DNA of 64,000 nucleotides from Chloroflexota bacterium. Lineage in GTDB: Bacteria > Chloroflexota > UBA11872 > VXOZ01. Below are positions 7,492 through 51,926 of the stretch, piece by piece. Made by a program: the position numbers and the translations under genes. The notes beneath the pieces were generated by a model. That model was not told the DNA's origin, made no database searches, and saw only the letters and a list, made by a program, of their open reading frames with translations. Location: positions 2,176,001 to 2,240,000 of the forward strand of contig OY760183.1 of the NCBI GenBank assembly GCA_963663275.1, in the 5' to 3' direction. Within the stretch, counting starts at the first letter, position 1. Every line of letters starts with the position of its first letter.

Positions 7492-8412
7492 TCAAGCGCG
7501 GCCCGCGGTGGAAGCGTCGCCGGTCAACGGCTGGGGCCACATGCGGCGAAACATGTACCACTGCTCCGGGCAACCCCGCACGATCTCTTCGAACATGCTC
7601 GCCAGTTGCTGCATGACCGCCTGGATGTCCTGTTTCTCATCGTCGCTCCGCGCGGTGTAGAGCGGCGGGTAGACGGTGACGGCCAGGCCGTCGCCGTCGC
7701 TGCGCCGGCAGTCGCACATCACCAGCGGAGCGCCGGTGCGCAGCGCCAGCGCCGCCGGCCCGGCGGGCAAGTACACCCGCGTGCCAAAGAACGTTACGGG
7801 CACGCCCTGCGCATTCATCGGCCGGTCGAAGAGCAGCCCGACGACGCGGTTGGCGTGGAGTTGCCGCAGCATGGCGCGCAAGCCCCGTTCCACCGGCACG
7901 GTATCGAAACCCAATCGCTCCCGCACCCGGCGCACGACCCAATCCAACGTTCCGCTCTGCAGGCGGTCTACCGGAATCAGCACCGGAAACCGCTGGGCGA
8001 GCATCGCGCCGCCCAGGTCCCACAGGCCAAAGTGCCCGGAAACGAAGATCACCCCTTTGCCGGCTTGCAGGGCTTCCGCTATGTACTCTTCGCCGTGAAA
8101 CTCCCGTACCCGCTTCTGCAAACGCTCCGGCGTCATCCGCAGCCAACTGAGGAAGTCTGCCAGATACCAGCCGTAGTTCTCCATGGACTTCCTGGCCAGC
8201 CGTTGCGTCTCCGGGTCCCGCTCCGGTTTGCCCAACACGTGGGACATGTTGGCAATGACGTTCTCGCGTCCCGCGCTCCAGACGGTGAAGATCAGGCGGG
8301 CCAGCAGGCTGGCGGCGCGATACTTGACCGCTTGCGGCAGGACGCCGTCCAACGCGGCGCCCGTCACCAACAAGAGCCGTCCCATTACCCCGCCGAACGT
8401 CATGTCGCGCAC
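7492..8412 (-). CDS. Lipid acyltransferase, PatA-like (LpxL/PIM acyltransferase family)
   Basis: HFGLWD (HxxxxD), LLFDR, VTFFG, PAGPAALALRTGAP, PEQWYMF. Confidence 0.85.
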   Translation of the reverse strand: MRDMTFGGVMGRLLLVTGAALDGVLPQAVKYRAASLLARLIFTVWSAGRENVIANMSHVLGKPERDPETQRLARKSMENYGWYLADFLSWLRMTPERLQKRVREFHGEEYIAEALQAGKGVIFVSGHFGLWDLGGAMLAQRFPVLIPVDRLQSGTLDWVVRRVRERLGFDTVPVERGLRAMLRQLHANRVVGLLFDRPMNAQGVPVTFFGTRVYLPAGPAALALRTGAPLVMCDCRRSDGDGLAVTVYPPLYTARSDDEKQDIQAVMQQLASMFEEIVRGCPEQWYMFRRMWPQPLTGDASTAGRA

Positions 8413-8418
8413 ATCTCC

Positions 8419-9534
8419 TTACGCGGGGTCGTCGCCTTGGAGAACGTGTCCCGCGTCATCGCCGGTTCCGGCGATGAACGCTTCCAGCATTTCCCGCGCC
8501 CGCTCGTCGGCAATCTGTTGCGGCGGCGACTTCATCAGATACGCCGAGGCCGCCACCAGCGTGCCGCTCAGATTTCGGTCCAGCCCGATTTTGGCCAAGC
8601 GGACGGCATCCAGCACCACTCCCGCGGAATTCGGTGAATCCCATACTTCCAGCTTGAGTTCGGCGCGCAGCGGCACGTCGCCAAAGGACCGGCCGTTCAT
8701 ATAGATGTAGGCCCACTTGCGGTCTTGCAGGAACGGCACGTGGTCGCTGGGCCCGATGTAGACGTTATCCGCGCCGGGATCGTAATCCAACTGCGAGGTG
8801 ACCGCGTTCGTCTTGGATTCCTTCTTGGAATTGAGGCGCGAGCGTTCCAGCATGTTGAGGAAGTCGGTATTGCCCCCCACGTTGAGCTGGCTGGTTTCCT
8901 CCAGGCGCACGCCGCGCTCCCGGAAGAGCCGCGCCAGCGCGCGATGGACGATCGTGGCGCCCACCTGCGACTTGATGTCGTCGCCTACGATGGGCACGCC
9001 CGCTTCGTGAAAGCGCCGCTGCCAATACGGCTCGCGGCCGATGAAAACCGGAATGCAGTTGACGAAGGCGCAACCGGCCTGCAAGACCTGCTCCACGTAC
9101 CACTTCGTCGCCTCTTCGCTGCCGACCGGCAAGTAGCTGACGACCACGTCGGTGCCGGTCTCTTTCAGGATATTGACGATGTCGTCGGTAGCGCCGGGCG
9201 CTTTATTCACCACGCCGCTGAGATACTGGCCGATGCCGTCGTGGGTCATGCCTCGATGCACGGTCACGCCCAGCGGTTCCACCTCAGAGAACTTGATCGT
9301 GTTGTTCGGCGATTCCCACATCGCCTCGCTGAGGTCCTTGCCAACCTTGTTTTCGTCCACGTCGAACGCGGCTGAGAACTCCACGTCGCTGACGTGGTAA
9401 TCGCCCAGGCGCACGTGCATGAGACCCGGCACGAAATCCGAATCCGCCGCGTTCCGGTAATAGCTCACACCCTGAATTAGAGACGACGCGCAGTTGCCCA
9501 CGCCAACAATCGCCACCCGTACCGTACTACTCAC
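8419..9534 (-). CDS. ino1: myo-inositol-1(3)-phosphate synthase
   Basis: [57 protein letters not shown]. Confidence 0.95.
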
Positions 9535-9588
9535 CGATTCAACTCTCCCTAGCGCTGCTGCAATACTTCTCGCTAACCTGCCTTGCCC

Positions 9589-9990
9589 GTAGCGCGGGGG
9601 CTTGTCCCCCGCCGTCCTTCACTGTCTTGGGGGCTTGCGCCCCGCCTTCCCTCACCGTAGCGCGGGGGCTCTTCCCCCGCTGACCTTGACTGTCTTGGGG
9701 GCTTGCCCCCCGCTTCTCCTCACCGTAGCGCGGGGGCTCATCCCCAATGCTGTCGCATTAAACACAATGAGAGTGAAAACAACGCTCGTTTCTCCGGTAG
9801 CGCAGGTTTGTAACCTGCGTCTTCCGTAAGGTCAATCCATTCCGTTCTCATTTTTCTTGTTCCGGCGGGGGACAAGCCCCCGCGCTACGTTAATGCGACA
9901 GTATTGGGGCTCATCCCCCGCTGACCTTGACTGTTCCCGGGGCTTGCCCCCCGCTGTCCCTCACCGCTGCGCGGGGGCTTCTCTCCCGCG
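9589..9990. repeat. Tandem array of GTAG-type REP-like hairpins (family B, GTAGCGCGGGGGCTTGTCCCCCGC)
   Basis: Alternating hairpins with about 68 bp period; same family at 40207-40545. Confidence 0.85.
9745..9906. mobile_element. MITE with 16-bp terminal inverted repeats and 11-bp target duplication (IS4-like ends)
   Basis: CAATGCTGTCGCATTA ... TAATGCGACAGTATTG; GGGCTCATCCC at 9734-9744 and 9907-9917; second copy at 40309-40486. Confidence 0.8.
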
Positions 9991-10053
9991 CCAACCGCCG
10001 CGCCTGCCCATGCCTTCAACGTCCATGCCGCGCGTGCGGTTTCCGCGCTCACC

Positions 10054-10392
10054 TTACGACGAACCCGCCGCCTGTTCCGCCAAGGCCGCCTCCTCTTCCT
10101 GTTCCACCGCCAGCAAGTCCTCCAGGCCTTGGGCGACCTGCCGGAAGCCGGCGCGATTGATCGTGTAATGCACTTGCCGCCCGTCTTTGGCCGCGTCCAC
10201 CAGGCCGGCGCGGCGCAAGATGCTCAGGTGCCACGAGAGCAACGGCTGGCTGATGCGCACGTGCTCCCGCAGTTCCGTCACCGTCATCGTCTCTTCAGCC
10301 GCCAGCACCCGCAGAATCTCCAAGCGGGAACGACTGGCCAACGCCCGCAACTGCCTGCTTAGCTCACGCACCGATCTCTCCTGCAAAGGCAT
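10054..10392 (-). CDS. ArsR/SmtB family transcriptional regulator
   Basis: RALASRSRLEIL...ISQPLLSWHLSILRRAGLV...GRQVHY winged HTH. Confidence 0.9.
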   Translation of the reverse strand: MPLQERSVRELSRQLRALASRSRLEILRVLAAEETMTVTELREHVRISQPLLSWHLSILRRAGLVDAAKDGRQVHYTINRAGFRQVAQGLEDLLAVEQEEEAALAEQAAGSS

Positions 10393-10459
10393 CGCTGCTC
10401 CTAACCAACCTGCCGCCTGACCAACAATATATCAAATATCGTTGAAGTGATTTTTCTTT

Positions 10460-10488
10460 ATATTATCCTGTTCTGTAGCTTAAGTCAA
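10460..10488 (-). promoter_or_regulatory. Putative sigma70 promoter for arsR and possibly the ino1 operon
   Basis: TTGACT-17 nt-TAATAT on the minus strand; imperfect palindrome TATCAAatatcgTTGAAG just downstream could be an ArsR box. Confidence 0.55.
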
Positions 10489-10500
10489 CAGATCCTGGCG

Positions 10501-10530
10501 TTGACGGTGGGCTGCCTGCGTTGATAGACT
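10501..10530 (+). promoter_or_regulatory. Putative sigma70 promoter of the dnd-like operon
   Basis: TTGACG-18 nt-TAGACT with TGn extended -10. Confidence 0.5.
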
Positions 10531-10594
10531 AGGATTGCACAGAATCTGGGATAGTTCAATCAGTCTGTTTGCCCAAGTGAGTAGAAGGTAGTCA

Positions 10595-11788
10595 TTGCGG
10601 AGAGCCATCTATCTGGACTATGCAGCAACTACGCCCGTCGATCCCCATGTAGCAAGAGCTATGATGAGGTTCTTGGGAACTGACGGGACGTTTGGCAATC
10701 CAGCATCACGTACACACCGCTTCGGTTGGCAAGCCGAGAAAGCGGTTGAAAACTCCCGGCAGGAAGTGGCGGAACTGATCAAAGCGGAACCGGATGAAAT
10801 CATTTGGACTTCGGGAGCCACGGAGTCGGACAACCTAGCAATCAAGGGCGTTGCCAATGCCTACGCCGACTGTGGCAAGCACATAGTCACTTCGGCAATT
10901 GAGCACAAGGCCGTGCTGGACTCATGTCGATACTTGGAAGGTCAAGGGTATGAGGTTACGTACATTGAGCCGAGTGCTGAGGGGATTGTTTGCCCTGAGG
11001 AAGTAGAGTCGGCCTTGCGTTCTGATACAATCTTGGTATCTTTGATGCACGTCAACAATGAGATTGGAACCATTACTGATGTCAAGGCCATTGCTGCGAT
11101 CACTCGCGAACGCAACATTCCTTTCCACGTTGACGCTGCACAGAGTGCCGCACGCCTGAAGTTAGATGTGCAGAGTATGCAGGCCGACCTCTTGTCTCTA
11201 AGTGGGCATAAGATGTACGGTCCCAAGGGAATCGGGGCGTTGTATGTTAGGCGAAATCCACGGATACGACTAGAGGCCCAGATGCATGGTGGGGGACACG
11301 AACTTGGCATGCGTTCAGGAACTCTACCCACTCACCAAATTGCAGGAATGGGCGAGGCTGCCCGTCTCATTGAAGAGCGACGTGAGTCTGACGGCGCCAA
11401 GATTGACTTTTTGTCGAAGCGCCTTCTGAGCCGCTTAGAGAAGATTGAGCAGTTATCAATCAATGGAAAGCGTACAAGTTGCGTGTCGGGCATCATAAAT
11501 GTGACCATTCCATCTGTCGAAAGTGAATCGCTAATCATGATGCTTAGAGGCAATATAGCCATATCTACTGGGTCTGCGTGTACTTCGGCAAGCGTGGAGC
11601 CCTCTCACGTCCTGAGAGCGCTTGGAATGGATGTAGAAGCCGCACACAGTTCTCTCCGGCTGAGTTTGGGTAGGTTTACGACTGCTGAAGAGATAGACTA
11701 TGCTACTGAACAGATCAGCGGCGCCGTAGACGAATTGCGCAGCATTTCTCCCAATTGGTTGGAGCATCGCAAGAGGATTGAAGCATGA
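10595..11788 (+). CDS. dndA: Cysteine desulfurase, DndA/IscS type, in the phosphorothioation cassette
   Basis: [28 protein letters not shown] (PLP Lys), STGSAC (catalytic Cys); ATGA overlap with dndC; lower GC than flanks. Confidence 0.88.
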
Positions 11789-12951
11789 GTACTTCCTACG
11801 CGGACAGCTGCGGGCAAGCTACCCAAAGTATCGCCGCCCACCTCGCCTCCGTGTCTGAAGTAATGAAGGCTGAGTATCGCAAGAATCACTCCGATCCCTG
11901 GATTGTTGCCTATTCCGGGGGCAAAGATTCGACGTTGCTGATGCAGTTGGTTTGGGAGATGCTCTTGTCGCTTGATCCGGAAGAGCGCCGCCGCATGGTT
12001 TACGTCGTAGCTAACGACACGCTGGTCGAATCTCCCCTTGTCATTGAGCATTTGAAGCAGAGCATTGATGTCATTCGCCAAACGGCGGACGAGATGGGAT
12101 TGCCAATTACCACTCAGATTACCAAGCCCTATGTAGACCAGACATTTTGGGTCAATGTCATAGGACGCGGTTATATTCCACCGACACGCAACTTCCGTTG
12201 GTGTACAGACAGGATGAAAATCCAACCGACGAATCGCTTGATAGAGGAACTCGTCGCCCGACATAGACGCGCAATACTGCTTGTGGGTACGCGCCGCAGC
12301 GAATCTCAGAGCCGCCGCCGCAATATGCAGAAGCATCGCGTGAGAGCCGACAAGATGAATCCGCACAGTTCTATAAAGGGCTGCCGGATGTTCGCGCCGC
12401 TTGCGGACTTGCAGGACGATGATGTGTGGATGATTCTCATGCAGAGAAAGCCGCCGTGGGGCGGCTCGCATCGTAACCTGATAACGCTCTATCGCAATGC
12501 GGGTGGGGGCGAGTGCCCGCTGGTACTAACCAAAGAAGATGCCCCGTCATGCGGCACAACTTCACCACGGTTCGGCTGCTGGACGTGCACCGTCGTCACG
12601 AAGGACCGCAGTATGCGCGGGACGATTGATTCCGGACATGCCCAGCAGGTGAAGTTGGAGGCACTATTCAGTTTTCGTGAGTGGCTAATTGAACTCCGTG
12701 AGGACAACGATAACCGTTTGCCGGTACGCCGTGATGGACGTACCAAGACTCGTGTGGATGGCTCTCGTGTTTTTGGCCCATTTAAGCTTGAAGTACGCAA
12801 GCAAATCCTGATTAGGTTGCGTAAGATGGAGGAGCAAATCGAAGAGCGGCTTGTTTCGCAATCTGAGATCATGGTCATTGAGGACATTTGGTGGCGTGAT
12901 AAGATTCGCGAGCAGGGCCGTCTTTCCTTGCTTGAAAAGTTGAATGTGTAG
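11785..12951 (+). CDS. dndC: DNA phosphorothioation sulfurtransferase DndC (PAPS-reductase/PP-loop family, Fe-S)
   Basis: [62 protein letters not shown]. Confidence 0.92.
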
Positions 12952-12956
12952 ATTCT

Positions 12957-14744
12957 ATGGTGCTTAGCTACGATCCGACAACGGTTGTAGAAGCAAGGGC
13001 TTCTACCTTATCCTCACTACTCTATAAAGGTGAGTTCGAGGTTCCGTGGCATCAACGAAACTACGACTGGACGAAAGAGGATGTCGAAGAGTTCTTGCAG
13101 GACTTAGACGAGGCATTTAGAGAGGAAAGGTCATCCTATTTCCTGGGAGCTATCGTATTGGTCAAGAAGCTGGAAGGCAAGTGGGAAATAAACGATGGGC
13201 AGCAACGTATGGTGACCTTCTCGCTGGTTTGCGCTCGGCTCGTTCGTAAATTCGCAGATGGTGTCGATTCCCGGTGCGAAGCACTAGCACTACGCGTAAT
13301 TTTCAATTTGAGTGAGAATCACATACGTGAGCTCTCGGAAGCTGAAGATCTCAGACCACGAATAACCCCACCTCAGCACGACAAGATGAATTTTGATTCG
13401 CTAGTACGTGGGCAGAACATCGGCACAAATGGCAAGCTCAAGACTGCTTGGGACGAGATTGACAGACATTTCACAACCATGAGTGCTGATGAGGCAAAAG
13501 GTTTCTTGGAATTCATACTCACAAGGCTAGAAGTGGCCTGTCTATTTGTTCCAAGTGAAATCGACCCCAGTGCCGTATTTGAAACGCTGAATGCGCGCGG
13601 AAAGCCTTTAGATGACTTAGACCTGATAAGGAATCATCTCTATTCGTTCTTTAGCGGAGACTCCATGAAGACCAAAAGGGAGACTGCACACGAGAACCTG
13701 GAGAGATTTCGTGCCCAGCTTCGGAGGCAAGAGGAGCCGGCAGAGTACCTGCGTTGCTTCTTACAGTGCAGATTTGGTTACTTGAGGAAAGATCGCTTTT
13801 ACCGAGACGTCAAGAGCAGAATAAAGACCGCCTGCGGAGGATTGCTCTCGCCAGATTCACCCGAGTATGTTTTTGGCCTGATAAGCGAGTTTTCCGCACT
13901 AGACAAGGTCGAACTCTTCCGCTCCATTGTCTCACCTAGTGAGGATGCGGACTTAGTCAAGAGTTTCTTGCGATATTCAGGACAAGCTAATTCTCCTAGG
14001 AATCTATTTGCGTTCTTGAAGGAACTCAGGAGCTACAAGATTACAAGACCCATCGTATTCGGGCTACTTTACCACTATGTTCGAGAAGCGGATGGCAGAG
14101 AGAAAAGGCGAGTAGCAAAGCTCGCACACCAACAATTGGACCTGCTATCGTCCTTTGTAATGCGGACAGCCACGATCACGTCAAGATTTGTGCCTTCTCA
14201 ATTCGAGAGTGAGTTCTCGAACCTAGCAAGTACGATCATGCACGCTAATTCTCTTGATAACGTCAATATCGTGAATGCCTTACGCGCAAGAGATGATGCC
14301 GGCGTTTTTGAGGACTCAGTTTTTGTTGAGAGGATGGCACAAGTGCAAATTCGCAACAACACAAAAGCCAGACGAATTTTGCTAGCCCTAGCTTATTTTC
14401 ATCAATTTGACGACCTTGTCATGAATGAAGAGCGGTACACAGTGGAGCACATTTTGCCCGATTCAGACAAGCACCTAATCGGCTGGAAGAGATTCAATGA
14501 GCGAGCACATACGGAGTATGTTTCTCGCCTCGGAAACCTTACCTTGCTCAGCAACGTGGACAATCGCCCTGGAACAGCCGACAACCAAAGTTTCACTAGG
14601 AAAAGAGAGATATTTGAAAGTAGTGCAATTCGACTTTCCCGGGCGATTGCTGGATGCTCAGACTGGTCGCCCGAGGAAATCCAGAAACGGCAGTGTCGAT
14701 TAGCTAAGTTAGCCTCTCAAGTGTGGCGTTTACCTGATGTATAA
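12957..14744 (+). CDS. DUF262 + DUF1524 (HNH) protein, SspE/GmrSD-like nuclease
   Basis: VPWHQRNYDW, YFLGAIV, DGQQR, FETLNARGKPL; C-terminal TVEHILP and LGNLTLL...N. Confidence 0.88.
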   Translation: MVLSYDPTTVVEARASTLSSLLYKGEFEVPWHQRNYDWTKEDVEEFLQDLDEAFREERSSYFLGAIVLVKKLEGKWEINDGQQRMVTFSLVCARLVRKFADGVDSRCEALALRVIFNLSENHIRELSEAEDLRPRITPPQHDKMNFDSLVRGQNIGTNGKLKTAWDEIDRHFTTMSADEAKGFLEFILTRLEVACLFVPSEIDPSAVFETLNARGKPLDDLDLIRNHLYSFFSGDSMKTKRETAHENLERFRAQLRRQEEPAEYLRCFLQCRFGYLRKDRFYRDVKSRIKTACGGLLSPDSPEYVFGLISEFSALDKVELFRSIVSPSEDADLVKSFLRYSGQANSPRNLFAFLKELRSYKITRPIVFGLLYHYVREADGREKRRVAKLAHQQLDLLSSFVMRTATITSRFVPSQFESEFSNLASTIMHANSLDNVNIVNALRARDDAGVFEDSVFVERMAQVQIRNNTKARRILLALAYFHQFDDLVMNEERYTVEHILPDSDKHLIGWKRFNERAHTEYVSRLGNLTLLSNVDNRPGTADNQSFTRKREIFESSAIRLSRAIAGCSDWSPEEIQKRQCRLAKLASQVWRLPDV

Positions 14745-15073
14745 TGGAGAAGCATACAAGATCATTATCGCCGTGGTCATATCCTACCCTTTCACGTGTT
14801 CCAGATGAGATTACCGGTGTCTATGCGTTCTGGTGCAGGGACAACGGAAAGTGTATCTATGTCGGCCAAGCGAAAGAGCGGTCGATTAGGGAGCGCCTAA
14901 GAGACCATTGGCACGGCTCGCACAATGAGATCTTGGGGTTGTGGATAAAAGTTTACGGTGAGACGCTGGACGTGTGCTACCTGTCTGTTGAGAGAGACAG
15001 GATCGACACACTTGAGAGACGCCTAATAAAGGTGTGGAAACCTGAAGCGAACAAGCAGCACAGCCAACGGTAA
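14744..15073 (+). CDS. Stand-alone GIY-YIG nuclease
   Basis: GVYAF...IYVGQA..SIRERL..H...LERRLI...P.AN; TAATG overlap with the upstream gene. Confidence 0.85.
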   Translation: MEKHTRSLSPWSYPTLSRVPDEITGVYAFWCRDNGKCIYVGQAKERSIRERLRDHWHGSHNEILGLWIKVYGETLDVCYLSVERDRIDTLERRLIKVWKPEANKQHSQR

Positions 15074-15084
15074 AGGAAGCAGCG

Positions 15085-16365
15085 ATGCCGACAACTCTAC
15101 CAGCCATGAAAGCCCGGTTGGGCAATACTGACTACTATATCCTTTCAATGAAAGCTCAGGAACTGTCTGACAGAGTCAAGATCCCGCGGGAATTGGAAGG
15201 TTGGGAAGACATGTCGGTCGAGGAGCGCTATCAGCGCGACCTCAACTATAGCCGTGTGAAAAATCAGATTGCCCCATACTTCGCTAACGACGAGTCACGG
15301 TTCTTCGGGGCAGTCATCGTCGCAGCGATGAACTTCGACGACCAAGATCAATTTGAGCCTCTCTCCGACATGCTGACGAGGGGAGTACCCAATTTGTACA
15401 AGACGGCAGCAACTTCGATAGGGTTTCTCACATTTAAGGGAGGAGAGGTCCTAGTTCCTCTTGACGGGCAACACCGCATCAAGGCGATTGAATTTGCGGT
15501 TAGTGGACTTGATGAACGAGGTCGTGAGATTACGAGCATAGAAACGCCTTGCACGGGACTCGCTCAGGAAGATGTCACTGTTATCCTTGTCCCCTACGAG
15601 TCTAGAAGTGCGCGTAGGATTTTCACACGAGTAAATCGTTACGCCAAGCCCACGACAACCGGACAGAACATCGTAACTGATGACGATGACATCATTGCGG
15701 TCATAACCCGTGAAATCTCCAACGACCTAATAGGTGCAAGGCTAGTTAAATTCAGCACCAACACTTTGAATAGAAGTGATCGGCACTTTACGACTCTTGC
15801 GATAATTTACAATTGCAACGCGGCAATTATCGCAGACAATTTCCCAAAGGGGAAAGTTGACAAGACCCGTTTGCCTAGCTCAGAGAATGTAATCCTCTTT
15901 CGCAAGAAGGTGTACGAGGTTTGGGAGCAGTTGCTTGAAAGTGTAGAAGTGTTTAAGGACGCTCTGGCTGATACCGAGAGCGGAAGCGATGAAAAGCGGC
16001 GCAATATTCGAGAGTCCAATTTGCTTGGCAAGCCGGTTGCTCAAGAGTGTCTGGTGCGCGCCTTTGTGCGCCTGGTAAGTCCGCCGACCAACCTCTCAAT
16101 GGATGATGCCTGCGACAACCTAAATCGCTTGCCTTGGGCAATCACAGAGGAGAACCTCCAGGTTTGGGACCGAGTGCTTTGGACCGGCGGTGTGGATGGA
16201 AGGATAATCACTAAGAACCGGAACCTAGCAACCAAGTTGATTTCCTATCTCGCAGGCGAAAAGCTTGGTGATGATGTGATATCAGAGTTGCTTCAAGACT
16301 ACCGAGCGCAATTCCCGGAAAGCGATCGGATTAACAAGCAACTGCCAGATGTGCCCAAAGTTTGA
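15085..16365 (+). CDS. dndB: DGQHR-domain protein, DndB-like
   Basis: YQRDLNYSRV..I..Y, RFFGAVIV, PLDGQHR, IFTRVNRYAKP. Confidence 0.85.
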   Translation: MPTTLPAMKARLGNTDYYILSMKAQELSDRVKIPRELEGWEDMSVEERYQRDLNYSRVKNQIAPYFANDESRFFGAVIVAAMNFDDQDQFEPLSDMLTRGVPNLYKTAATSIGFLTFKGGEVLVPLDGQHRIKAIEFAVSGLDERGREITSIETPCTGLAQEDVTVILVPYESRSARRIFTRVNRYAKPTTTGQNIVTDDDDIIAVITREISNDLIGARLVKFSTNTLNRSDRHFTTLAIIYNCNAAIIADNFPKGKVDKTRLPSSENVILFRKKVYEVWEQLLESVEVFKDALADTESGSDEKRRNIRESNLLGKPVAQECLVRAFVRLVSPPTNLSMDDACDNLNRLPWAITEENLQVWDRVLWTGGVDGRIITKNRNLATKLISYLAGEKLGDDVISELLQDYRAQFPESDRINKQLPDVPKV

Positions 16366-16443
16366 GCCGCAAATAGCTAAAGATCTTTGACACTCAACTC
16401 AGTGTGTCTTCCTGCGCGTGGCACTTGCTAGCATAGTACCAAC

Positions 16444-17574
16444 ATGCGAGTGGCACTGGCGCACGATTACTTCTATGCCCTGGGAGGCGCGGAGCGGACC
16501 GTGGCGGTTATGCGCGGGCTGTGGCCGGCGGCGCCCGTGTACACAGCTTTCGTTGACTATGGGACGTTTCCGCGCCTGCGGGGCAGTGCGCTGGACGTGG
16601 CGGCGTGGGACGTGCGCGCGTCGTTCCTGCAGCGGGTTCCGCACCCGGCCCGCTACCAGAAGTATCTCACGCCGCTCTACCCGCTGGCGTTTCGCGGCAT
16701 CGACGTGGGAGCCTACGACGTGGTCGTTTCCTCGGCCAGTTTCGCGGCGAAGGGCATTCCACGCCATCCGTACACCCTGCACGTGTGCTACTGTTACACG
16801 CCGCCGCGCTTCCTGTGGGGCCTGACGCCGGCCACGGACCGCGGGCGCATGTCCTGGCCGCTGCGCGGGCTCGACGCGCTGTTGCGGCCGCCGCTGCGCC
16901 GGTGGGACCGCTGGGCCGCCGCCCAGCCGCACCATCTCGTGGCCATCTCCCAGACCGTGGCGGCGCGCATCCGCAGAGTCTATGGCAGAGAATCGACCGT
17001 TATCTATCCGCCCGTCGCCACGCGCCGCTTCCAGTCGCAGCCCTGCCGCGATGAGGGGTATTATGTATTCGTGGGGCGGCTGGAGGCGCACAAGCAGGTT
17101 GACGTGGCGATCGCGGCGGCGCAAGCCGCCGGCGTTCCCCTGCGTGTCATCGGCGACGGCCCGCTCCGCGAGAGCCTGGTACGCACAGTGCCTTCCAACG
17201 TGACTATCCTCGGCTGGCTGCCCGAGCAGGAGTTGAGCGCACAACTCGCCGGCTGCCGCGCGCTTCTCTTTCCCGGTGAAGAGGATTTCGGCATCGTCAT
17301 GGTCGAAGCCCTGAGCGCGGGCAAGCCGGTGATCGCTTACGGCGCCGGCGGCGCGACCGAGATCGTGCAGCCGGAGGTGAACGGCGTGCTGGTGCCCGAG
17401 CAGTCGGCAGACGCTTTCGCTCAGGTACTGCGGTCATTCGACCCCAACCGTTTCTCACCGGCGACGTGCCGGGAGACGGCAACGCGCTTCGATGAATCAG
17501 TCTTTGCCGGTCAATTCAAGGCGTTCGTGGAAGAAAAGTGGACGACATTCGTGCAGACAAGACCGACCGGCTAG
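16444..17574 (+). CDS. GT4 glycosyltransferase
   Basis: VALAHDY...GGAER, CYCYTPPR, EEDFGIVMVEALSAGKPV. Confidence 0.9.
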   Translation: MRVALAHDYFYALGGAERTVAVMRGLWPAAPVYTAFVDYGTFPRLRGSALDVAAWDVRASFLQRVPHPARYQKYLTPLYPLAFRGIDVGAYDVVVSSASFAAKGIPRHPYTLHVCYCYTPPRFLWGLTPATDRGRMSWPLRGLDALLRPPLRRWDRWAAAQPHHLVAISQTVAARIRRVYGRESTVIYPPVATRRFQSQPCRDEGYYVFVGRLEAHKQVDVAIAAAQAAGVPLRVIGDGPLRESLVRTVPSNVTILGWLPEQELSAQLAGCRALLFPGEEDFGIVMVEALSAGKPVIAYGAGGATEIVQPEVNGVLVPEQSADAFAQVLRSFDPNRFSPATCRETATRFDESVFAGQFKAFVEEKWTTFVQTRPTG

Positions 17575-18323
17575 CCAACGGCAGCGCCCACGTGCCCGCT
17601 AGCGCGGATGCGCTGGGCGTGCGTGTGGACTGCGTCTCCATGTGCCAGGCGGTTGACCGTTGCGCGCAATTGCTCGACACGGCCGGCCACCACCAGGTGG
17701 TGACGCTCAACCCGGAGTTCGTGATGCACGCCCAGCGCGACGCGCCTTTCCGCGCGCTGGTGCGGGAGGCCGCCCTGGTGGTGCCGGACGGCGCGGGCAT
17801 CGTCTGGGCTTTGCGCCGCCAAGGCGTTGCCACCGTCGAGCGCGTGACGGGCATCGACTTGATGCGGGAGCTTTGCGCCCTTGCCGCGCAACAGAGGATG
17901 CCCGTCTTTCTGCTCGGCGCGGCGCCGGGGGTGGCGGCGCAAGCGGCGGATGCGTTGCGGCGGGAGTTTCCCGGCCTCACGGTCGCGGGCACGGCCGTCG
18001 GCGCGCCGGATCCGGCACAAGCGCCCGCGCTGTGCGCGCAGATCCGCGAATCGGGCGCGGCAGTCCTCTTCGTCGCCTTTGGCTGTCCCGCGCAGGATTC
18101 TTGGATTCAGCGGCACCAGCAAGAGTCCGGCGCGCGCCTGGCCATGGGCGTCGGCGGCAGTTTCGACTACATCTCCGGCAAGGTCGCGCGCGCCCCACTT
18201 TGGCTGCGCCGCGTGAATCTCGAGTGGCTCTTTCGTCTCGCGCGCCAGCCGTGGCGGTGGCGGCGGCAGCGCGTGCTCGTTGTGTACCTGTGGCGCGTGC
18301 TGCGCCAGCAAACGCCGCGTTAA
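17538..18323 (+). CDS. WecB/TagA/CpsF family glycosyltransferase (GT26)
   Basis: VTLNPE, PDGAGIV, ERVTGID, FGCPAQ, GVGGSFD, RAP, LEWLFRL. Confidence 0.9.
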   Translation: MDDIRADKTDRLANGSAHVPASADALGVRVDCVSMCQAVDRCAQLLDTAGHHQVVTLNPEFVMHAQRDAPFRALVREAALVVPDGAGIVWALRRQGVATVERVTGIDLMRELCALAAQQRMPVFLLGAAPGVAAQAADALRREFPGLTVAGTAVGAPDPAQAPALCAQIRESGAAVLFVAFGCPAQDSWIQRHQQESGARLAMGVGGSFDYISGKVARAPLWLRRVNLEWLFRLARQPWRWRRQRVLVVYLWRVLRQQTPR

Positions 18324-18324
18324 A

Positions 18325-18373
18325 CCCCATGAATTGACCCAATGAGTTGACCCAATGAACTCACCCAATGAAC
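18325..18373. repeat. 13-bp tandem repeat, about 3.8 copies
   Basis: ccccatgaattga cccaatgagttga cccaatgaactca cccaatgaac. Confidence 0.85.
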
Positions 18374-18400
18374 GGGGACAATTCTGCCGCACGACTCTCT

Positions 18401-18487
18401 CCCTCTCCCTGGGGAGCACGTCTCGTTCCCTCTTCCTGGGGAGCGCGTCTCGTTACCTCTCCCTGAGGAGAGGGTTAGGGTGAGGGG
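18401..18487. repeat. 27-bp tandem amplification of family A repeat
   Basis: ccctctccctggggagcacgtctcgtt / ccctcttcctggggagcgcgtctcgtt / acctctccctgaggagagggttagggtgagggg. Confidence 0.75.
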
Positions 18488-18606
18488 TAAATCTTCCCAA
18501 CGCTCCCCTCTTTGGAGATACAGTCGGCACGAAAGCCGGTTGCCGCTCAGGATGGGCGCAGGTTGCAAACCTTCCCTACTGAGGAGGTACGAACAAGAGG
18601 CGCATA

Positions 18607-19632
18607 GTGGCTGACACGAATGACAGCACCCGGATGAACGACCCGGCCGCTGACGGCGCGCGGCGCTATGACGTGCTGGTCGTCGGCAGCGTCAACACAG
18701 ACCTAGTGGTTTCCGTGCCGACGCTGCCGCAAGCCGGCGAAACCGTGCTGGGCGGCGACTTGCGGCGCATTGGCGGCGGCAAGGGCGCGAACCAAGCCGT
18801 AGCCGCCGCGCGGCTGAGAGCGCGCACGGTCATGATCGGCCGCGTTGGCGCCGACGCATTCGGCAAGGAACGCGTTAAGGAACTGAAGTCATACGGCGTG
18901 GCGGCCGGCGCAATCGTAGCGGACGACGCTCGGCCGACCGGCGCGGCGCTCATTCTTGTGGACGAAGAGGGCGAGAACGTCATTGCCGTCTCACCCGGCG
19001 CCAATGCGGCGCTCGCGCCGTCTCACGTGACGGACGCTTCTGCGCTCTTCGCGCAGGCGAGCGTGCTGGTTTGCCAACTTGAAGTACCCCTTAGAACCGT
19101 AGAAACCGCCTTGGCGCAGGCCCGTGCGCATGACGTGACAACCATCCTCAACGCCGCTCCCGGCAACCCGGAGGCGGCGCACCTGCTCGCGTCAACCGAT
19201 GTGTTGATCGTAAACCGGATCGAGGCCGCCAGCCTGACGGCGCATCCGGTAGAGTCAATAGCCGCCGCGCGCGCCGCCGCAGCAGCGCTTAGCGAGGAAG
19301 TCCGGCGCGCGGCAATCCTCACGCTGGGCGCGGAGGGCAGCATTGTCGCTGCGCACGGCAGTGTAGCTCACGTGCCGGCGTGGCGTGTAGACCCGGTTGA
19401 CGCTACCGCAGCCGGCGACGCCTTCGTCGGCGCACTGGCAGCGGCGCTCTCCGGTGGGGAGAAGCTAGCGGACGCCGCGCGCTTTGCCACCGCGGCCGCG
19501 GCGATCGCGGTGGGCCGGTTTGGCGCGCAACCCTCGTTGCCTACCCGCGCGGAAGTCGATTCCTCTCTCCAAGACCCTCCTGTTGCCGCGCACGCCACAA
19601 CCTGCCACGATGGGGAAGGCAACGACCCGTGA
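18607..19632 (+). CDS. rbsK: Ribokinase
   Basis: VVGSVNTD, GGKGANQAVAAARL, CQLEVP, NAAP, DATAAGDAFVG. Confidence 0.88.
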   Translation: MADTNDSTRMNDPAADGARRYDVLVVGSVNTDLVVSVPTLPQAGETVLGGDLRRIGGGKGANQAVAAARLRARTVMIGRVGADAFGKERVKELKSYGVAAGAIVADDARPTGAALILVDEEGENVIAVSPGANAALAPSHVTDASALFAQASVLVCQLEVPLRTVETALAQARAHDVTTILNAAPGNPEAAHLLASTDVLIVNRIEAASLTAHPVESIAAARAAAAALSEEVRRAAILTLGAEGSIVAAHGSVAHVPAWRVDPVDATAAGDAFVGALAAALSGGEKLADAARFATAAAAIAVGRFGAQPSLPTRAEVDSSLQDPPVAAHATTCHDGEGNDP

Positions 19633-50693: not shown

Positions 50694-51926
50694 TCAGTCA
50701 TCCGCGGCAAGCGATAGCCGTGAAGGCGGCGCGCCGGTTTCCGCGCGGACGGCATTCACAGCGCCGGCCAGGATGTCTAGCGCGTCGTCGATGTCCGCGT
50801 GGGTGGTGTCCTTGCCAATGCTGAAGCGGAGCGCGCTGGCGGCGAGTGCCGTAGGCTTGCCCAGGGCGCGCAGCACGTGGGACGGTTCGACCGTGCCGGA
50901 CGTGCACGCCGCGCCGTTCGAGACGTCTACGCCGGCGAGGTCCAGGCGCAGCAGCAGCATTTCGTTCGATGCGCCGGGAAACGATACGTTCGCTATGCCG
51001 GCCACGCGCCGGGTCGGGTGACCGTTGCGCTCGCTCCAGGGCAAGCGTTCCTCGATGCCGCGCTCCAGGCGCTGGCGCAACTCCAGGGCGTGGGCGGCGC
51101 GGTCCGAGCGTTCGGCTTCCGCCAGGCGCAATGCCTCCGCCAGGCCCACGACGGCGGCCACGTTTTCCGTGCCGGGACGCTGCTCCCGCTCCTGCCCGCC
51201 GCCGGCGAACAATGGTTGAAACGGCACGCCGTGGCGCAGAACGAGCAAGCCGACGCCTTTCGGCCCGTAGCACTTGTGGGCGGTCAGCGAAAGCGCGTCC
51301 ACGCCCCAACCGGCGAGGCGCACGGGCAGATGGCCGGCGGCCTGGACCGCGTCGGTGTGCATCGGCACCCCGCGCTCCCGGCAGATGGCCGCAATCTCCC
51401 GCACCGGCTGGATGACGCCGATTTCATTGTTCACGGCCATGATGGAGACCAGCGCCGTGTCGTCGCGCAGCGCGGCCGCCACCGCCGCGGGATCTACCAG
51501 GCCGTCGCCGTCAACCGGCACGTACGTGACGCGAAAACCCTCTTGCTCAAGCTGCTCGCAGGCGTGGAGCACGGCATGGTGCTCGATTTGGCTGGTTACG
51601 ACGTGGCCGCCCCGGCCGGCGGCGCGTTGCGCCCGGGCGATGCCGAAGACGGCGCTGTTGTCGCTCTCCGTCCCGCCGCTGGTGAAAAGAATCTCGGTTG
51701 GCTGGCAGGCGAGCAATTGGGCGATCTGTTCGCGGGCGTCCTCTATGGCGCGGCGGGCGCGGCGGCCCGTGGCGTGGAGACTCGAGGGATTGCCGTAATT
51801 GTCCGTGAGATACGGCAGCATCGCCGCCACCACGCGCGCATCGAGCGGGGTCGTGGCGGCATAGTCCAGATAGATCCTGCGCCGTGGCTTCACTGTTTCG
51901 ATACCGGAATGCGAGGTTCGCGCCAT
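50694..51926 (-). CDS. iscS: Cysteine desulfurase (housekeeping IscS/NifS type)
   Basis: [36 protein letters not shown]; host-like GC. Confidence 0.9.
   Translation of the reverse strand: MARTSHSGIETVKPRRRIYLDYAATTPLDARVVAAMLPYLTDNYGNPSSLHATGRRARRAIEDAREQIAQLLACQPTEILFTSGGTESDNSAVFGIARAQRAAGRGGHVVTSQIEHHAVLHACEQLEQEGFRVTYVPVDGDGLVDPAAVAAALRDDTALVSIMAVNNEIGVIQPVREIAAICRERGVPMHTDAVQAAGHLPVRLAGWGVDALSLTAHKCYGPKGVGLLVLRHGVPFQPLFAGGGQEREQRPGTENVAAVVGLAEALRLAEAERSDRAAHALELRQRLERGIEERLPWSERNGHPTRRVAGIANVSFPGASNEMLLLRLDLAGVDVSNGAACTSGTVEPSHVLRALGKPTALAASALRFSIGKDTTHADIDDALDILAGAVNAVRAETGAPPSRLSLAADD

Follow-up and report, generated by a model that had tools for sequence, protein, structure and literature searches.

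A DndC–GmrSD-like gene pair in a Chloroflexota island: a probable and as yet undescribed variant of sulfur-based DNA marking and defence

A compact operon centred on DndC and a GmrSD-like gene

We analyzed a stretch of 64,000 nucleotides (nt) of contig OY760183.1 (assembly GCA_963663275.1) from a Chloroflexota bacterium, referred to below as the window, whose own positions serve as coordinates, and found in it an island of five genes in which a gene for a DndC-family sulfurtransferase is followed directly by one for a GmrSD-type protein. The pairing of DndC with a GmrSD-like gene is conserved, and the island seems to represent a way of marking and defending DNA with sulfur that varies on known ones and has yet to be described, for which DndI, SspE, Tdp and passing remarks on sponge symbionts are partial precedents. 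On balance, we lean toward reading this mobile island as a phosphorothioate (PT) restriction-modification system that dispenses with DndD and DndE, is built on a complex of DndC with the GmrSD-like protein, and carries an exchangeable second nuclease module. The five genes are as follows.

10595..11788, + strand: IscS-type cysteine desulfurase (in the role of DndA or SspA), 397 amino acids (aa), TTG start
11785..12951, + strand: DndC-family PP-loop/[4Fe-4S] sulfurtransferase, short form, 388 aa
12957..14744, + strand: GmrSD-type protein with an N-terminal DUF262 domain (ParB-like NTPase, DGQQR) and a C-terminal DUF1524 domain (His-Me nuclease, EHxxP), 595 aa
14744..15073, + strand: small GIY-YIG nuclease, 109 aa
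15085..16365, + strand: DGQHR-domain protein of the ParB/Srx superfamily, not a DndB equivalog, 426 aa

A first-pass annotation of the sequence had described five co-directional and tightly coupled open reading frames (ORFs); all of them were recovered at these positions on the + strand. Neighboring genes overlap by 4 nt at the first junction and by 1 nt (TAATG) at the third, and are separated by 5 nt at the second and by 11 nt at the fourth.

Conservation of the DndC–GmrSD-like pair and exchange of the accessory module

Gene neighborhoods were compared in 80 loci sampled from 597 confirmed relatives, which had been obtained in a scan with one genome per species. In the 31 loci in which DndC was at least 58% identical to that of the window (range 58–87%; L003–L033, hereafter the close loci), the GmrSD-like gene lay immediately 3' of DndC in all cases except L015 (30/31), an IscS gene adjoined DndC in 23, and no DndD match was detected by tblastn within 8 kb. 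Records of the clade formed by these DndCs (see below) span at least nine phyla, namely Chloroflexota, Latescibacterota, Nitrospinota, Nitrospirota, Binatota, Acidobacteriota, Thermodesulfobacteriota, Gemmatimonadota and Pseudomonadota; the recurrence of the gene order in unrelated genomes, which the first-pass annotation had left to be checked, is thus seen. Several of these records bear the names of candidate taxa that we take to be sponge-associated.

The genes that come next are of two kinds. The GIY-YIG and DGQHR genes follow the pair in 17 of the 31 close loci (as an inverted pair in two), and 12 loci carry an alternative module composed of an SNF2 helicase, a ParB_N protein, a protein of unknown type and a ligase-associated-exonuclease-like protein (weak match; MBL). 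In L014, the IscS, DndC and GmrSD-like genes stand alone with neither module, and L015 retains only a remnant of one. The five genes had earlier been treated as a single unit; the comparison instead shows a core of DndC and the GmrSD-like gene, with the GIY-YIG–DGQHR pair as one of two exchangeable accessory modules.

The proteins of the alternative module measure 457 aa (SNF2), 275 aa (ParB_N), 235 aa (unassigned) and 341 aa (exonuclease-like) at L005:10979-14921, and the module is also found in L008, L019, L021–L026 and L028–L030. Apart from generic SNF2 models, it matched no PADLOC system. We considered whether it corresponds to PbeABCD and rejected this identification, as its gene content (SNF2, ParB_N, unassigned, exonuclease-like) differs from that of Pbe, which is described in passages of PMC10853773 as having a CxC ABC ATPase at its centre, with DndE, an HKD-SF2 helicase and a small protein. 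One close locus (L025:11033-12970) additionally encodes, directly past the DndC–GmrSD-like pair, a 645-aa ‘DNA phosphorothioation-associated putative methyltransferase’ (TIGR04096, 469 bits); it also has a distant DGQHR gene on the opposite strand, and L031 carries an ORF related to this methyltransferase.

DGQHR genes are not confined to such loci. The canonical dndBCDE plasmid loci L089:2679-4452, L090:9830-11741 and L091:10117-12020 each encode a divergent DGQHR protein that is paired with a small, opposite-strand gene; in P. aeruginosa this small gene encodes an HNH nuclease, and those of the other two loci gave no Pfam match. A DGQHR gene and a small gene may form a general Dnd-associated two-gene module, and because such pairs flank canonical dndBCDE clusters too, the GIY-YIG–DGQHR pair probably belongs to it.

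A different arrangement was observed in 47 comparison loci with DndC identities of 44–52% (L036–L082): a DndD match was found downstream of DndC in 42 of them, mostly with a HerA/FtsK-like ATPase next. The five loci lacking a full DndD comprise two short contigs (L038 and L074), one with only a HerA-like ATPase (L061), one with only the C-terminal part of DndD ~1 kb downstream (L081), and L060, which is a two-gene cassette of DndC and a GmrSD-like gene. The nearest DndC relatives (L053:7704-14721, L092:5856-15110 and most of L036–L082) reside in DndC-DndD-(DndE)-HerA/FtsK-like clusters, and the annotated record L092 has DndE-family genes as well. Some clusters of this type add a small protein plus a ‘DGQHR protein 1’.

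The recurrence of the pair bears on the explanation that the locus is a decayed dnd cluster, in which dndD and dndE were lost, no modification is left, and the nucleases are unrelated neighbors in a defence island. This explanation draws on passages in which Dnd modification is held to require both DndD and DndE (PMC10853773), on the statement that the PT genes in which sponge metagenomes abound are ‘not functionally complete’ (passages of PMC5099237), and on the fact that the insertion site is a hotspot gathering unrelated defence genes (see below). We nevertheless regard it as very improbable: the DndC–GmrSD-like pair is translationally coupled and maintained across the close loci and phyla listed above at DndC identities of 58–87%, the frames of the window are undisrupted, the catalytic residues are all invariant (see below), and the conservation of DndC and DGQHR ranks with the highest in the region.

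Searches for DndD, DndE and other usual partners

The genome containing the window consists of one contig of 3,531,182 bases and is 99.57% complete. A genome-wide profile search detected a single DndC (343.9 bits). No DndD above the cut-off was found in this genome, the best match to TIGR03185 scoring 18.8 bits against a cut-off of 245.85, and matches as weak as this also arise in 11 of 14 control genomes; DndE (TIGR03184) gave no match at E ≤ 0.1. In five further complete genomes with the locus, DndD above the cut-off (0/5) and any DndE match (0/5) were likewise absent. The models themselves were effective on known members, in that the DndE model detected 3/3 canonical dndE genes above its cut-off and the DndD of L053 scored 273 bits against a cut-off of 246. 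An additional DndE-like gene has no room within the operon, because its gaps are at most 11 nt. The first-pass annotation had reserved its reading for the case that neither dndD nor dndE lay elsewhere in the genome, and neither was found in this genome or in any of the five other carriers. As far as architecture goes, its description stands: a desulfurase and DndC are coupled to a GmrSD/SspE-type nuclease, and a large ATPase is missing.

The partners of other PT systems were also sought in the genome containing the window. DptG and DptH (TIGR03236 and TIGR03237) gave no match at E ≤ 0.001 in a search that did not include DptF; the DptH model detected 2/2 known copies, and the DptG model had no positive control. 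SspB (PF13182, DUF4007) likewise gave no match in this genome with a model that had no positive control, in a search that did not extend to SspC.

Phylogeny of DndC

We constructed a maximum-likelihood tree of 85 DndC sequences, from which L035 was left out as a fragment. All DndCs linked to a GmrSD-like gene, together with those of L015 and L034, formed one clade of 34 sequences (UFBoot/SH-aLRT support 100/99), and a single change accounted for the GmrSD label in every one of 200 bootstrap trees. The tree thus indicates a single origin for the pairing of DndC with a GmrSD-like gene. The sister of this clade is a DndD-linked rhizobial group (support 97/87), and when the tree is rooted at the midpoint, which falls on the canonical dndBCDE sequences, the clade is nested amid DndD-linked DndCs. 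Because of this nesting, the nuclease gene can be said to occupy the slot of DndD, and we infer that, given the midpoint root, the GmrSD-like gene would have taken the place of DndD (and DndE) once. The label of the accessory module behaves differently, with five changes on the same tree, at least four of which are forced by well-supported branches; the core therefore appears stable, and the accessories appear to have been swapped.

The short C-terminus of DndC was also considered as a hallmark of this clade. It was rejected, since the DndCs of L053 and L092, which belong to the DndD-linked sister group, also lack the extension of ~100 aa.

A predicted complex of DndC and the GmrSD-like protein

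We modelled DndC together with the GmrSD-like protein and obtained ipSAE values of 0.82, 0.82 and 0.79 in three runs, compared with 0.00 for the best of three controls. These values pass a mark that 58 out of 80 solved complexes attain, as do 2 out of 110 mismatched pairs; with self-made alignments, these counts serve as a rough guide only. The runs agreed in at least 87% of contacts, with a pLDDT of at least 83 for the partner. The predicted interface lies between residues 318–320 and 370–388 of DndC, the latter forming its C-terminal helix, and residues 250–256, 314–336 and 375–383 in the middle domain of the GmrSD-like protein. It is unlikely that the model reproduces a memorised solved complex, because no DndC-like or TdpC-like chain was found in our copy of the PDB by phmmer, profile search or Foldseek, which returned generic PP-loop enzymes only. 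The model suggests that the GmrSD-like protein, placed in DndD's slot and predicted to bind DndC, may be more than an effector.

To our knowledge, the GmrSD family has so far been known solely as restriction enzymes. A partner role in modification is favored here because the gene occupies DndD's slot, the linkage has one origin, the gene is invariant while nuclease modules swap, and the complex is predicted. The alternative is that the roles are split, with DndC and IscS writing PT alone in the manner of TdpC, and the GmrSD-like protein acting as a purely PT-sensing effector of the DndI/SspE type whose contact with DndC is incidental or regulatory. We take this alternative seriously while considering it rather unlikely. 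The GmrSD-like protein matches DndI in size and architecture, as DndI is described in passages of PMC11662687 (596 aa, DGQQR plus HNH), and DndI is also its best solved relative; furthermore, tdpC by itself is stated to be sufficient for PT synthesis (passages of PMC12914056). The similarity to DndI is weak, however (34 bits), and Tyr25, with which DndI senses PT, aligns with His32 (residues counted by hand). Moreover, the GmrSD-like gene sits exactly where the nearest DndC relatives have DndD, and it is the invariant element of loci in which accessory nuclease modules are exchanged; among Dnd and Ssp systems, variation falls on the restriction modules. The modelled contact with DndC, for which the controls gave 0.00, points in the same direction.

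Identity of the five proteins and their catalytic residues

The product of 10595–11788 matched the IscS model NF010611 with 580 bits (cut-off 548), as well as Pfam Aminotran_5, and scored 436.5 bits on the DndA equivalog, under its cut-off of 480. Its earlier label of DndA was therefore an over-call. The PADLOC models for SspA and DndA gave 549 and 539 bits, respectively. The genome has four desulfurase-like genes including that of the island. A second one lies in the window itself at ~50745–51878 on the minus strand (G000:C1:2226745-2227878; 390.9 bits on the IscS model, below the cut-off), and two more are found elsewhere in the genome.

DndC (11785–12951) passed the equivalog model TIGR03183 with 345 bits (cut-off 290), aligning to model positions 6–364 of 447, and matched Pfam PAPS_reduct; on the PADLOC models, it scored 388 bits for DndC and 34.6 bits for SspD. 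The motifs SGGKDS, RWCT, GECP, SCG and FGCWTC that had been noted in DndC at first pass were seen in its translation, as were DGQQR and EHILP in the GmrSD-like protein. The SGGKDS motif and C140, C244, C256, C265 and C268 were invariant in 25/25 aligned DndCs, including four canonical or plasmid-borne ones.

The GmrSD-like protein gave 97.7 bits for Pfam GmrSD_N (cut-off 33.2) and 78.2 bits for GmrSD_C (cut-off 23), and among PADLOC models it scored 259 bits for HEC-06, 194 for Orf5 and 57.8–60.4 for SspE. Its match to DndI (9jfl) has an E-value of 9e-8 and that to SspE (6jiv) 6.5e-4. Residues N79–R84, E497, H498, P501, N527 and N543 were invariant in 21/21 relatives. The GIY-YIG protein matched Pfam GIY_YIG_2 (37.1 bits) and GIY-YIG (26 bits), with Y27, Y39, G41, R51, E91 and N103 invariant in 14/14 sequences.

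The product of 15085–16365 matched the DGQHR model TIGR03187 (95.7 bits, cut-off 58.85) and Pfam DndB (93 bits), and scored only 54.5 bits on the DndB equivalog TIGR03233 against a cut-off of 328, so that the name DndB given to it at first pass has to be withdrawn. D127–R131 were invariant in 19/19 sequences. In its AlphaFold model (pLDDT 85.5), the N-terminal half showed weak matches to ParB/sulfiredoxin folds (Z 5.0, rmsd 4.3, 89 aligned residues), and the helical C-terminal half gave no clear fold match (none at E ≤ 0.001 with Foldseek, and only Z ≤ 5 with VIA-align). In these alignments, the catalytic residues of the DndC, GmrSD-like, GIY-YIG and DGQHR families are intact.

These assignments also bear on the idea that DndC and the GmrSD-like protein carry out a different chemistry, in other words, that they install another sulfur mark (or a mark of another kind) or act on RNA, and that the nucleases read that mark. 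The predicted structure of DndC indeed resembles PP-loop thiolases in general (NcsA, TtuA, LarE and GMP synthetase; Foldseek E ~2e-5, TM 0.25–0.34). We consider this idea a long shot: DndC passes the equivalog cut-off, shares the PP-loop and every invariant cysteine with canonical DndCs, and has as its nearest relatives DndCs accompanied by true DndD and DndE. Furthermore, DndC, SspD, TdpC and BrxP are all described as PT writers in passages of PMC12914056.

Proposed mechanism

Under our preferred reading, in which a DndC–GmrSD complex is the basis of PT restriction-modification, the IscS-type desulfurase of the island would draw sulfur from cysteine and hand it to DndC, which would activate the backbone phosphate with ATP and replace a non-bridging oxygen with sulfur. 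DndC would do so without the DndD ATPase or DndE, its C-terminal helix docking on the middle domain of the GmrSD-type protein. The ParB-like NTPase domain (DGQQR) of the latter would provide NTP-driven DNA handling, and its His-Me nuclease domain would nick or cut unmarked DNA, so that writer and nuclease would be joined in one complex. The GIY-YIG and DGQHR proteins would constitute an exchangeable second module, probably a ParB-type sensor or NTPase with a nuclease in trans, and would serve as a further effector or regulator. The gene content, the lack of DndD and DndE, the conserved pairing with its one origin on the DndC tree, the intact catalytic residues and the insertion into a variable site are results of the analysis; the PT product, the flow of sulfur, the physical complex, the restricting protein and any role in phage defence are what we infer.

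A more far-reaching version, which we put forward only tentatively and hold with less confidence than the general reading, assigns the GmrSD-family protein the part of the DNA-handling subunit of the PT writer. It would replace DndD/DndE (or SspB/SspC), perform NTP-driven scanning and nicking, and form a stable complex through the C-terminal helix of DndC. Restriction would then be left to exchangeable ‘split SspE-like’ modules consisting of a ParB/DGQHR sensor and a nuclease in trans, the latter being GIY-YIG in the island and the SNF2, ParB and MBL proteins elsewhere. Such a system might represent a fifth route to DNA phosphorothioation, spread horizontally in at least nine phyla.

Several observations weigh against the reading of a DndC–GmrSD-like writer. 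The direction of replacement, from DndD to the GmrSD-like gene, hinges on the root, which was placed at the midpoint on canonical DndCs, and the short C-terminus of DndC is common to the DndD-linked sister group. Two members of the clade, L015 and L034, lack the GmrSD-like gene. In the latter, which is basal in the clade, DndC overlaps a gene for a 377-aa HNH_4 protein by 4 nt (7884–10261), and the two genes lie directly after sarcosine-oxidase genes. The GmrSD-like gene is divided into two ORFs in L007:9140-10931 (179 + 411 aa) and L032:9118-10883 (84 + 490 aa), which could reflect a frameshift, decay or assembly error. DndE proteins of the sister clade are divergent and score just 17.9–24.6 bits on the DndE model, so the search could have missed a DndE-like protein that is encoded at another place in the genome and has diverged strongly. 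The complex is a matter of model confidence, not a measurement, and the columns at the predicted interface are less conserved than the others in both the GmrSD-like protein (mean column identity 0.40 vs 0.57) and DndC (0.48 vs 0.71); at the interface, only hydrophobic positions and R371/R379 are kept. On the side of the split-roles alternative, no gene of the region has diverged more than the GmrSD-like one: it shows 59% aa identity between the window and the syntenic locus L003, the remaining genes of the island show 82, 87, 74 and 85%, and the flanks 69–94%. This pattern fits a phage-exposed effector.

The divergence of the GmrSD-like protein from that of L003 runs along its whole length, and its nearest database relative is likewise 59% identical, as compared with 93% for DndC. 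We also examined whether the HNH_4 protein of L034 might be a truncated GmrSD-like protein and found no support for this, the hhalign probability being 1.2% and no GmrSD-like N-terminal domain being detected.

Comparison with known systems

In published PT systems, the sulfurtransferase either works with an ATPase and DNA-recognition pair dedicated to it (DndD/E, SspB/C or BrxC) or, in the case of TdpC, acts alone. The TdpABC system of extreme thermophiles, reportedly described by An et al. in Nat Chem Biol in 2025, is said to have TdpA, which is a hexameric translocase, and the nuclease TdpB as partners; the partners found in the island are instead a GmrSD-type protein, a GIY-YIG protein and a DGQHR protein. 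GmrSD/BrxU Type IV enzymes stand alone and attack modified phage DNA. These enzymes and HEC-06 resemble the GmrSD-like protein in having GmrSD_N and GmrSD_C with intact NTPase and His-Me motifs, whereas the protein of the island is fixed to a modification enzyme and predicted to bind DndC. A stand-alone role is disfavored for it because of its linkage to DndC in 30 of 31 loci.

The canonical DndABCDE plus DndFGH system has the same catalytic motifs in DndC, and DGQHR pairs occur beside canonical clusters too; it differs in that the island has a GmrSD-like gene in place of DndD and DndE and that DptG and DptH were not found in the genome. The clusters of L053 and L092 share the short DndC C-terminus with the island and differ in having DndD/DndE instead of the GmrSD-like gene. 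A closer precedent comes from Salmonella enterica Cerro 87, where the DUF262-DUF1524 nuclease DndI partners the canonical IscS-DndBCDE (passages of PMC11662687). Both systems couple a desulfurase and DndC with a DUF262 plus DUF1524 nuclease of ~596 aa and include a ParB-superfamily DGQHR-type protein in the cluster. Unlike that system, the island lies in a genome in which no DndD or DndE was found, encodes a DGQHR protein that is not a DndB equivalog, has its nuclease directly after DndC, and adds a GIY-YIG gene; the GmrSD-like protein shares the architecture of DndI with only weak similarity in sequence. We tried to link the PADLOC model Orf5 to DndI and failed, as 42 kb of an E. coli dndBCDE-dndFGH record contained no DUF262 gene and three candidate ORFs had no PADLOC matches.

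The SspABCD-SspE system is alike in pairing a PT writer that has an IscS-like SspA with a DUF262-DUF1524 partner. It is unlike the island in the type of sulfurtransferase, which here is that of DndC (388 vs 34.6 bits for SspD). The nuclease of the island has the domains of SspE, and the SspE models gave ~60 bits for it and HEC-06 259. The first-pass annotation had spoken of a Dnd/Ssp hybrid, a reading that is unneeded, since DndI already partners Dnd and the nuclease scores far higher on HEC-06 and Orf5 than on SspE. That annotation had also proposed a minimal PT writer without any match among named systems. In this respect, a single-gene PT writer, TdpC, has already been published, and passages of PMC12914056 state that tdpC alone suffices.

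Two published surveys come close to these loci. In the passages concerned, the screen of PMC12914056 demanded a P-loop NTPase near dndC and named a DUF262 neighborhood of dndC in Sulfurimonas as a putative system, and the survey of PMC10853773 was anchored on a DndD/CxC-DndE core and deemed modules without it non-functional. Both would be blind to the clade by design, because their anchors (DndD/CxC-DndE and a P-loop NTPase, respectively) are absent from the architecture with GIY-YIG and DGQHR; the P-loop NTPase filter might let through those loci that carry the SNF2 helicase module. In sponge thaumarchaea, dndA/dndC-like genes have been mentioned together with DUF262/DUF1524 ‘dndB-like’ genes, and sponge metagenomes have been reported to be enriched in ‘not functionally complete’ PT systems (passages of PMC6790972, PMC7848895 and PMC5099237). 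Our literature search found such passing mentions and no paper defining or testing the DndC-DUF262 architecture, although the supplements of PMC12914056 and PMC10853773 may list members.

If the proposed reading is true, the island would represent a new PT-writing architecture with a small core of 2–3 genes, which raises the question of what guides the choice of target sites when DndE and SspB are lacking, and the GmrSD family would gain a role tied to a host modification enzyme. It would also account for the incomplete dnd genes and the richness in DUF262/DUF1524 genes of sponge metagenomes noted in passages of PMC5099237, PMC7848895 and PMC6790972.

The island, its insertion site and mobility

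Two further features of the window concern the island as a whole and its putative promoter.

10468..16420, no strand: inserted low-GC island of ~5.95 kb, with an ArsR-family gene on one side and a glycosyltransferase gene on the other (synteny and GC)
10501..10530, + strand: sigma-70-like promoter candidate, TTGACG, 18 nt, TAGACT, with TG ahead of the –10 element (pattern scan)

The GC content in 500-nt windows was 0.46–0.53 at 10500–16499 and 0.61–0.71 in the flanks, in agreement with the abrupt low-GC block amid host-like genes recognized at first pass. The flanks are syntenic in genomes free of the island. An empty site was found in a genome of the same genus (G149, L126), which aligned to the window through 10467 and resumed at 16421, with 134 nt in between. 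Other cargo of 1.2–3.3 kb occupies the site in three genomes, consisting of 1.2–1.5 kb of small unassigned ORFs in G244 (L123) and G194 (L125) and, in G410 (L124), of 3.3 kb encoding RusA, an AHJR-like restriction endonuclease with HEPN, and a protein similar to Shedu SduA_C. The junction between the ArsR and glycosyltransferase genes is thus a variable defence hotspot into which the island has been inserted.

The DndC of the island was present in 4 of 17 genomes of the genus, its own included, and the same three other genomes contained a close DGQHR gene. Across the phylum, DGQHR was detected in 10 of 401 genomes at E ≤ 1e-10 (including the unpublished G350), six of the ten matches being weak. 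One genome of the genus carries a second, more divergent DGQHR copy (312.8 bits; G324:C1:363831-365063, L113) far from its island copy.

The promoter proposed at first pass fared less well than the base composition. A pattern resembling –35 and –10 elements does exist, and the candidate at 10501–10530 matches the consensus at 9 of 12 positions; as evidence it is weak, because the number of such sites in the region (8) is not significant over that in shuffled sequences (5.1 ± 2.2).

As for marks of mobility, we found no tRNA gene in 1–30000, no direct repeats flanking the island and no Rfam match in 8000–19000. Outside the island, a cluster of GC-rich palindromic repeats extends over 9588–9989, with 81-nt direct copies at 9597, 9665 and 9906 and inverted arms of up to 32 nt. 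It occupies the gap of ~520 nt between an inositol-phosphate-synthase-like gene and the ArsR gene, and has a REP/MITE-like appearance.

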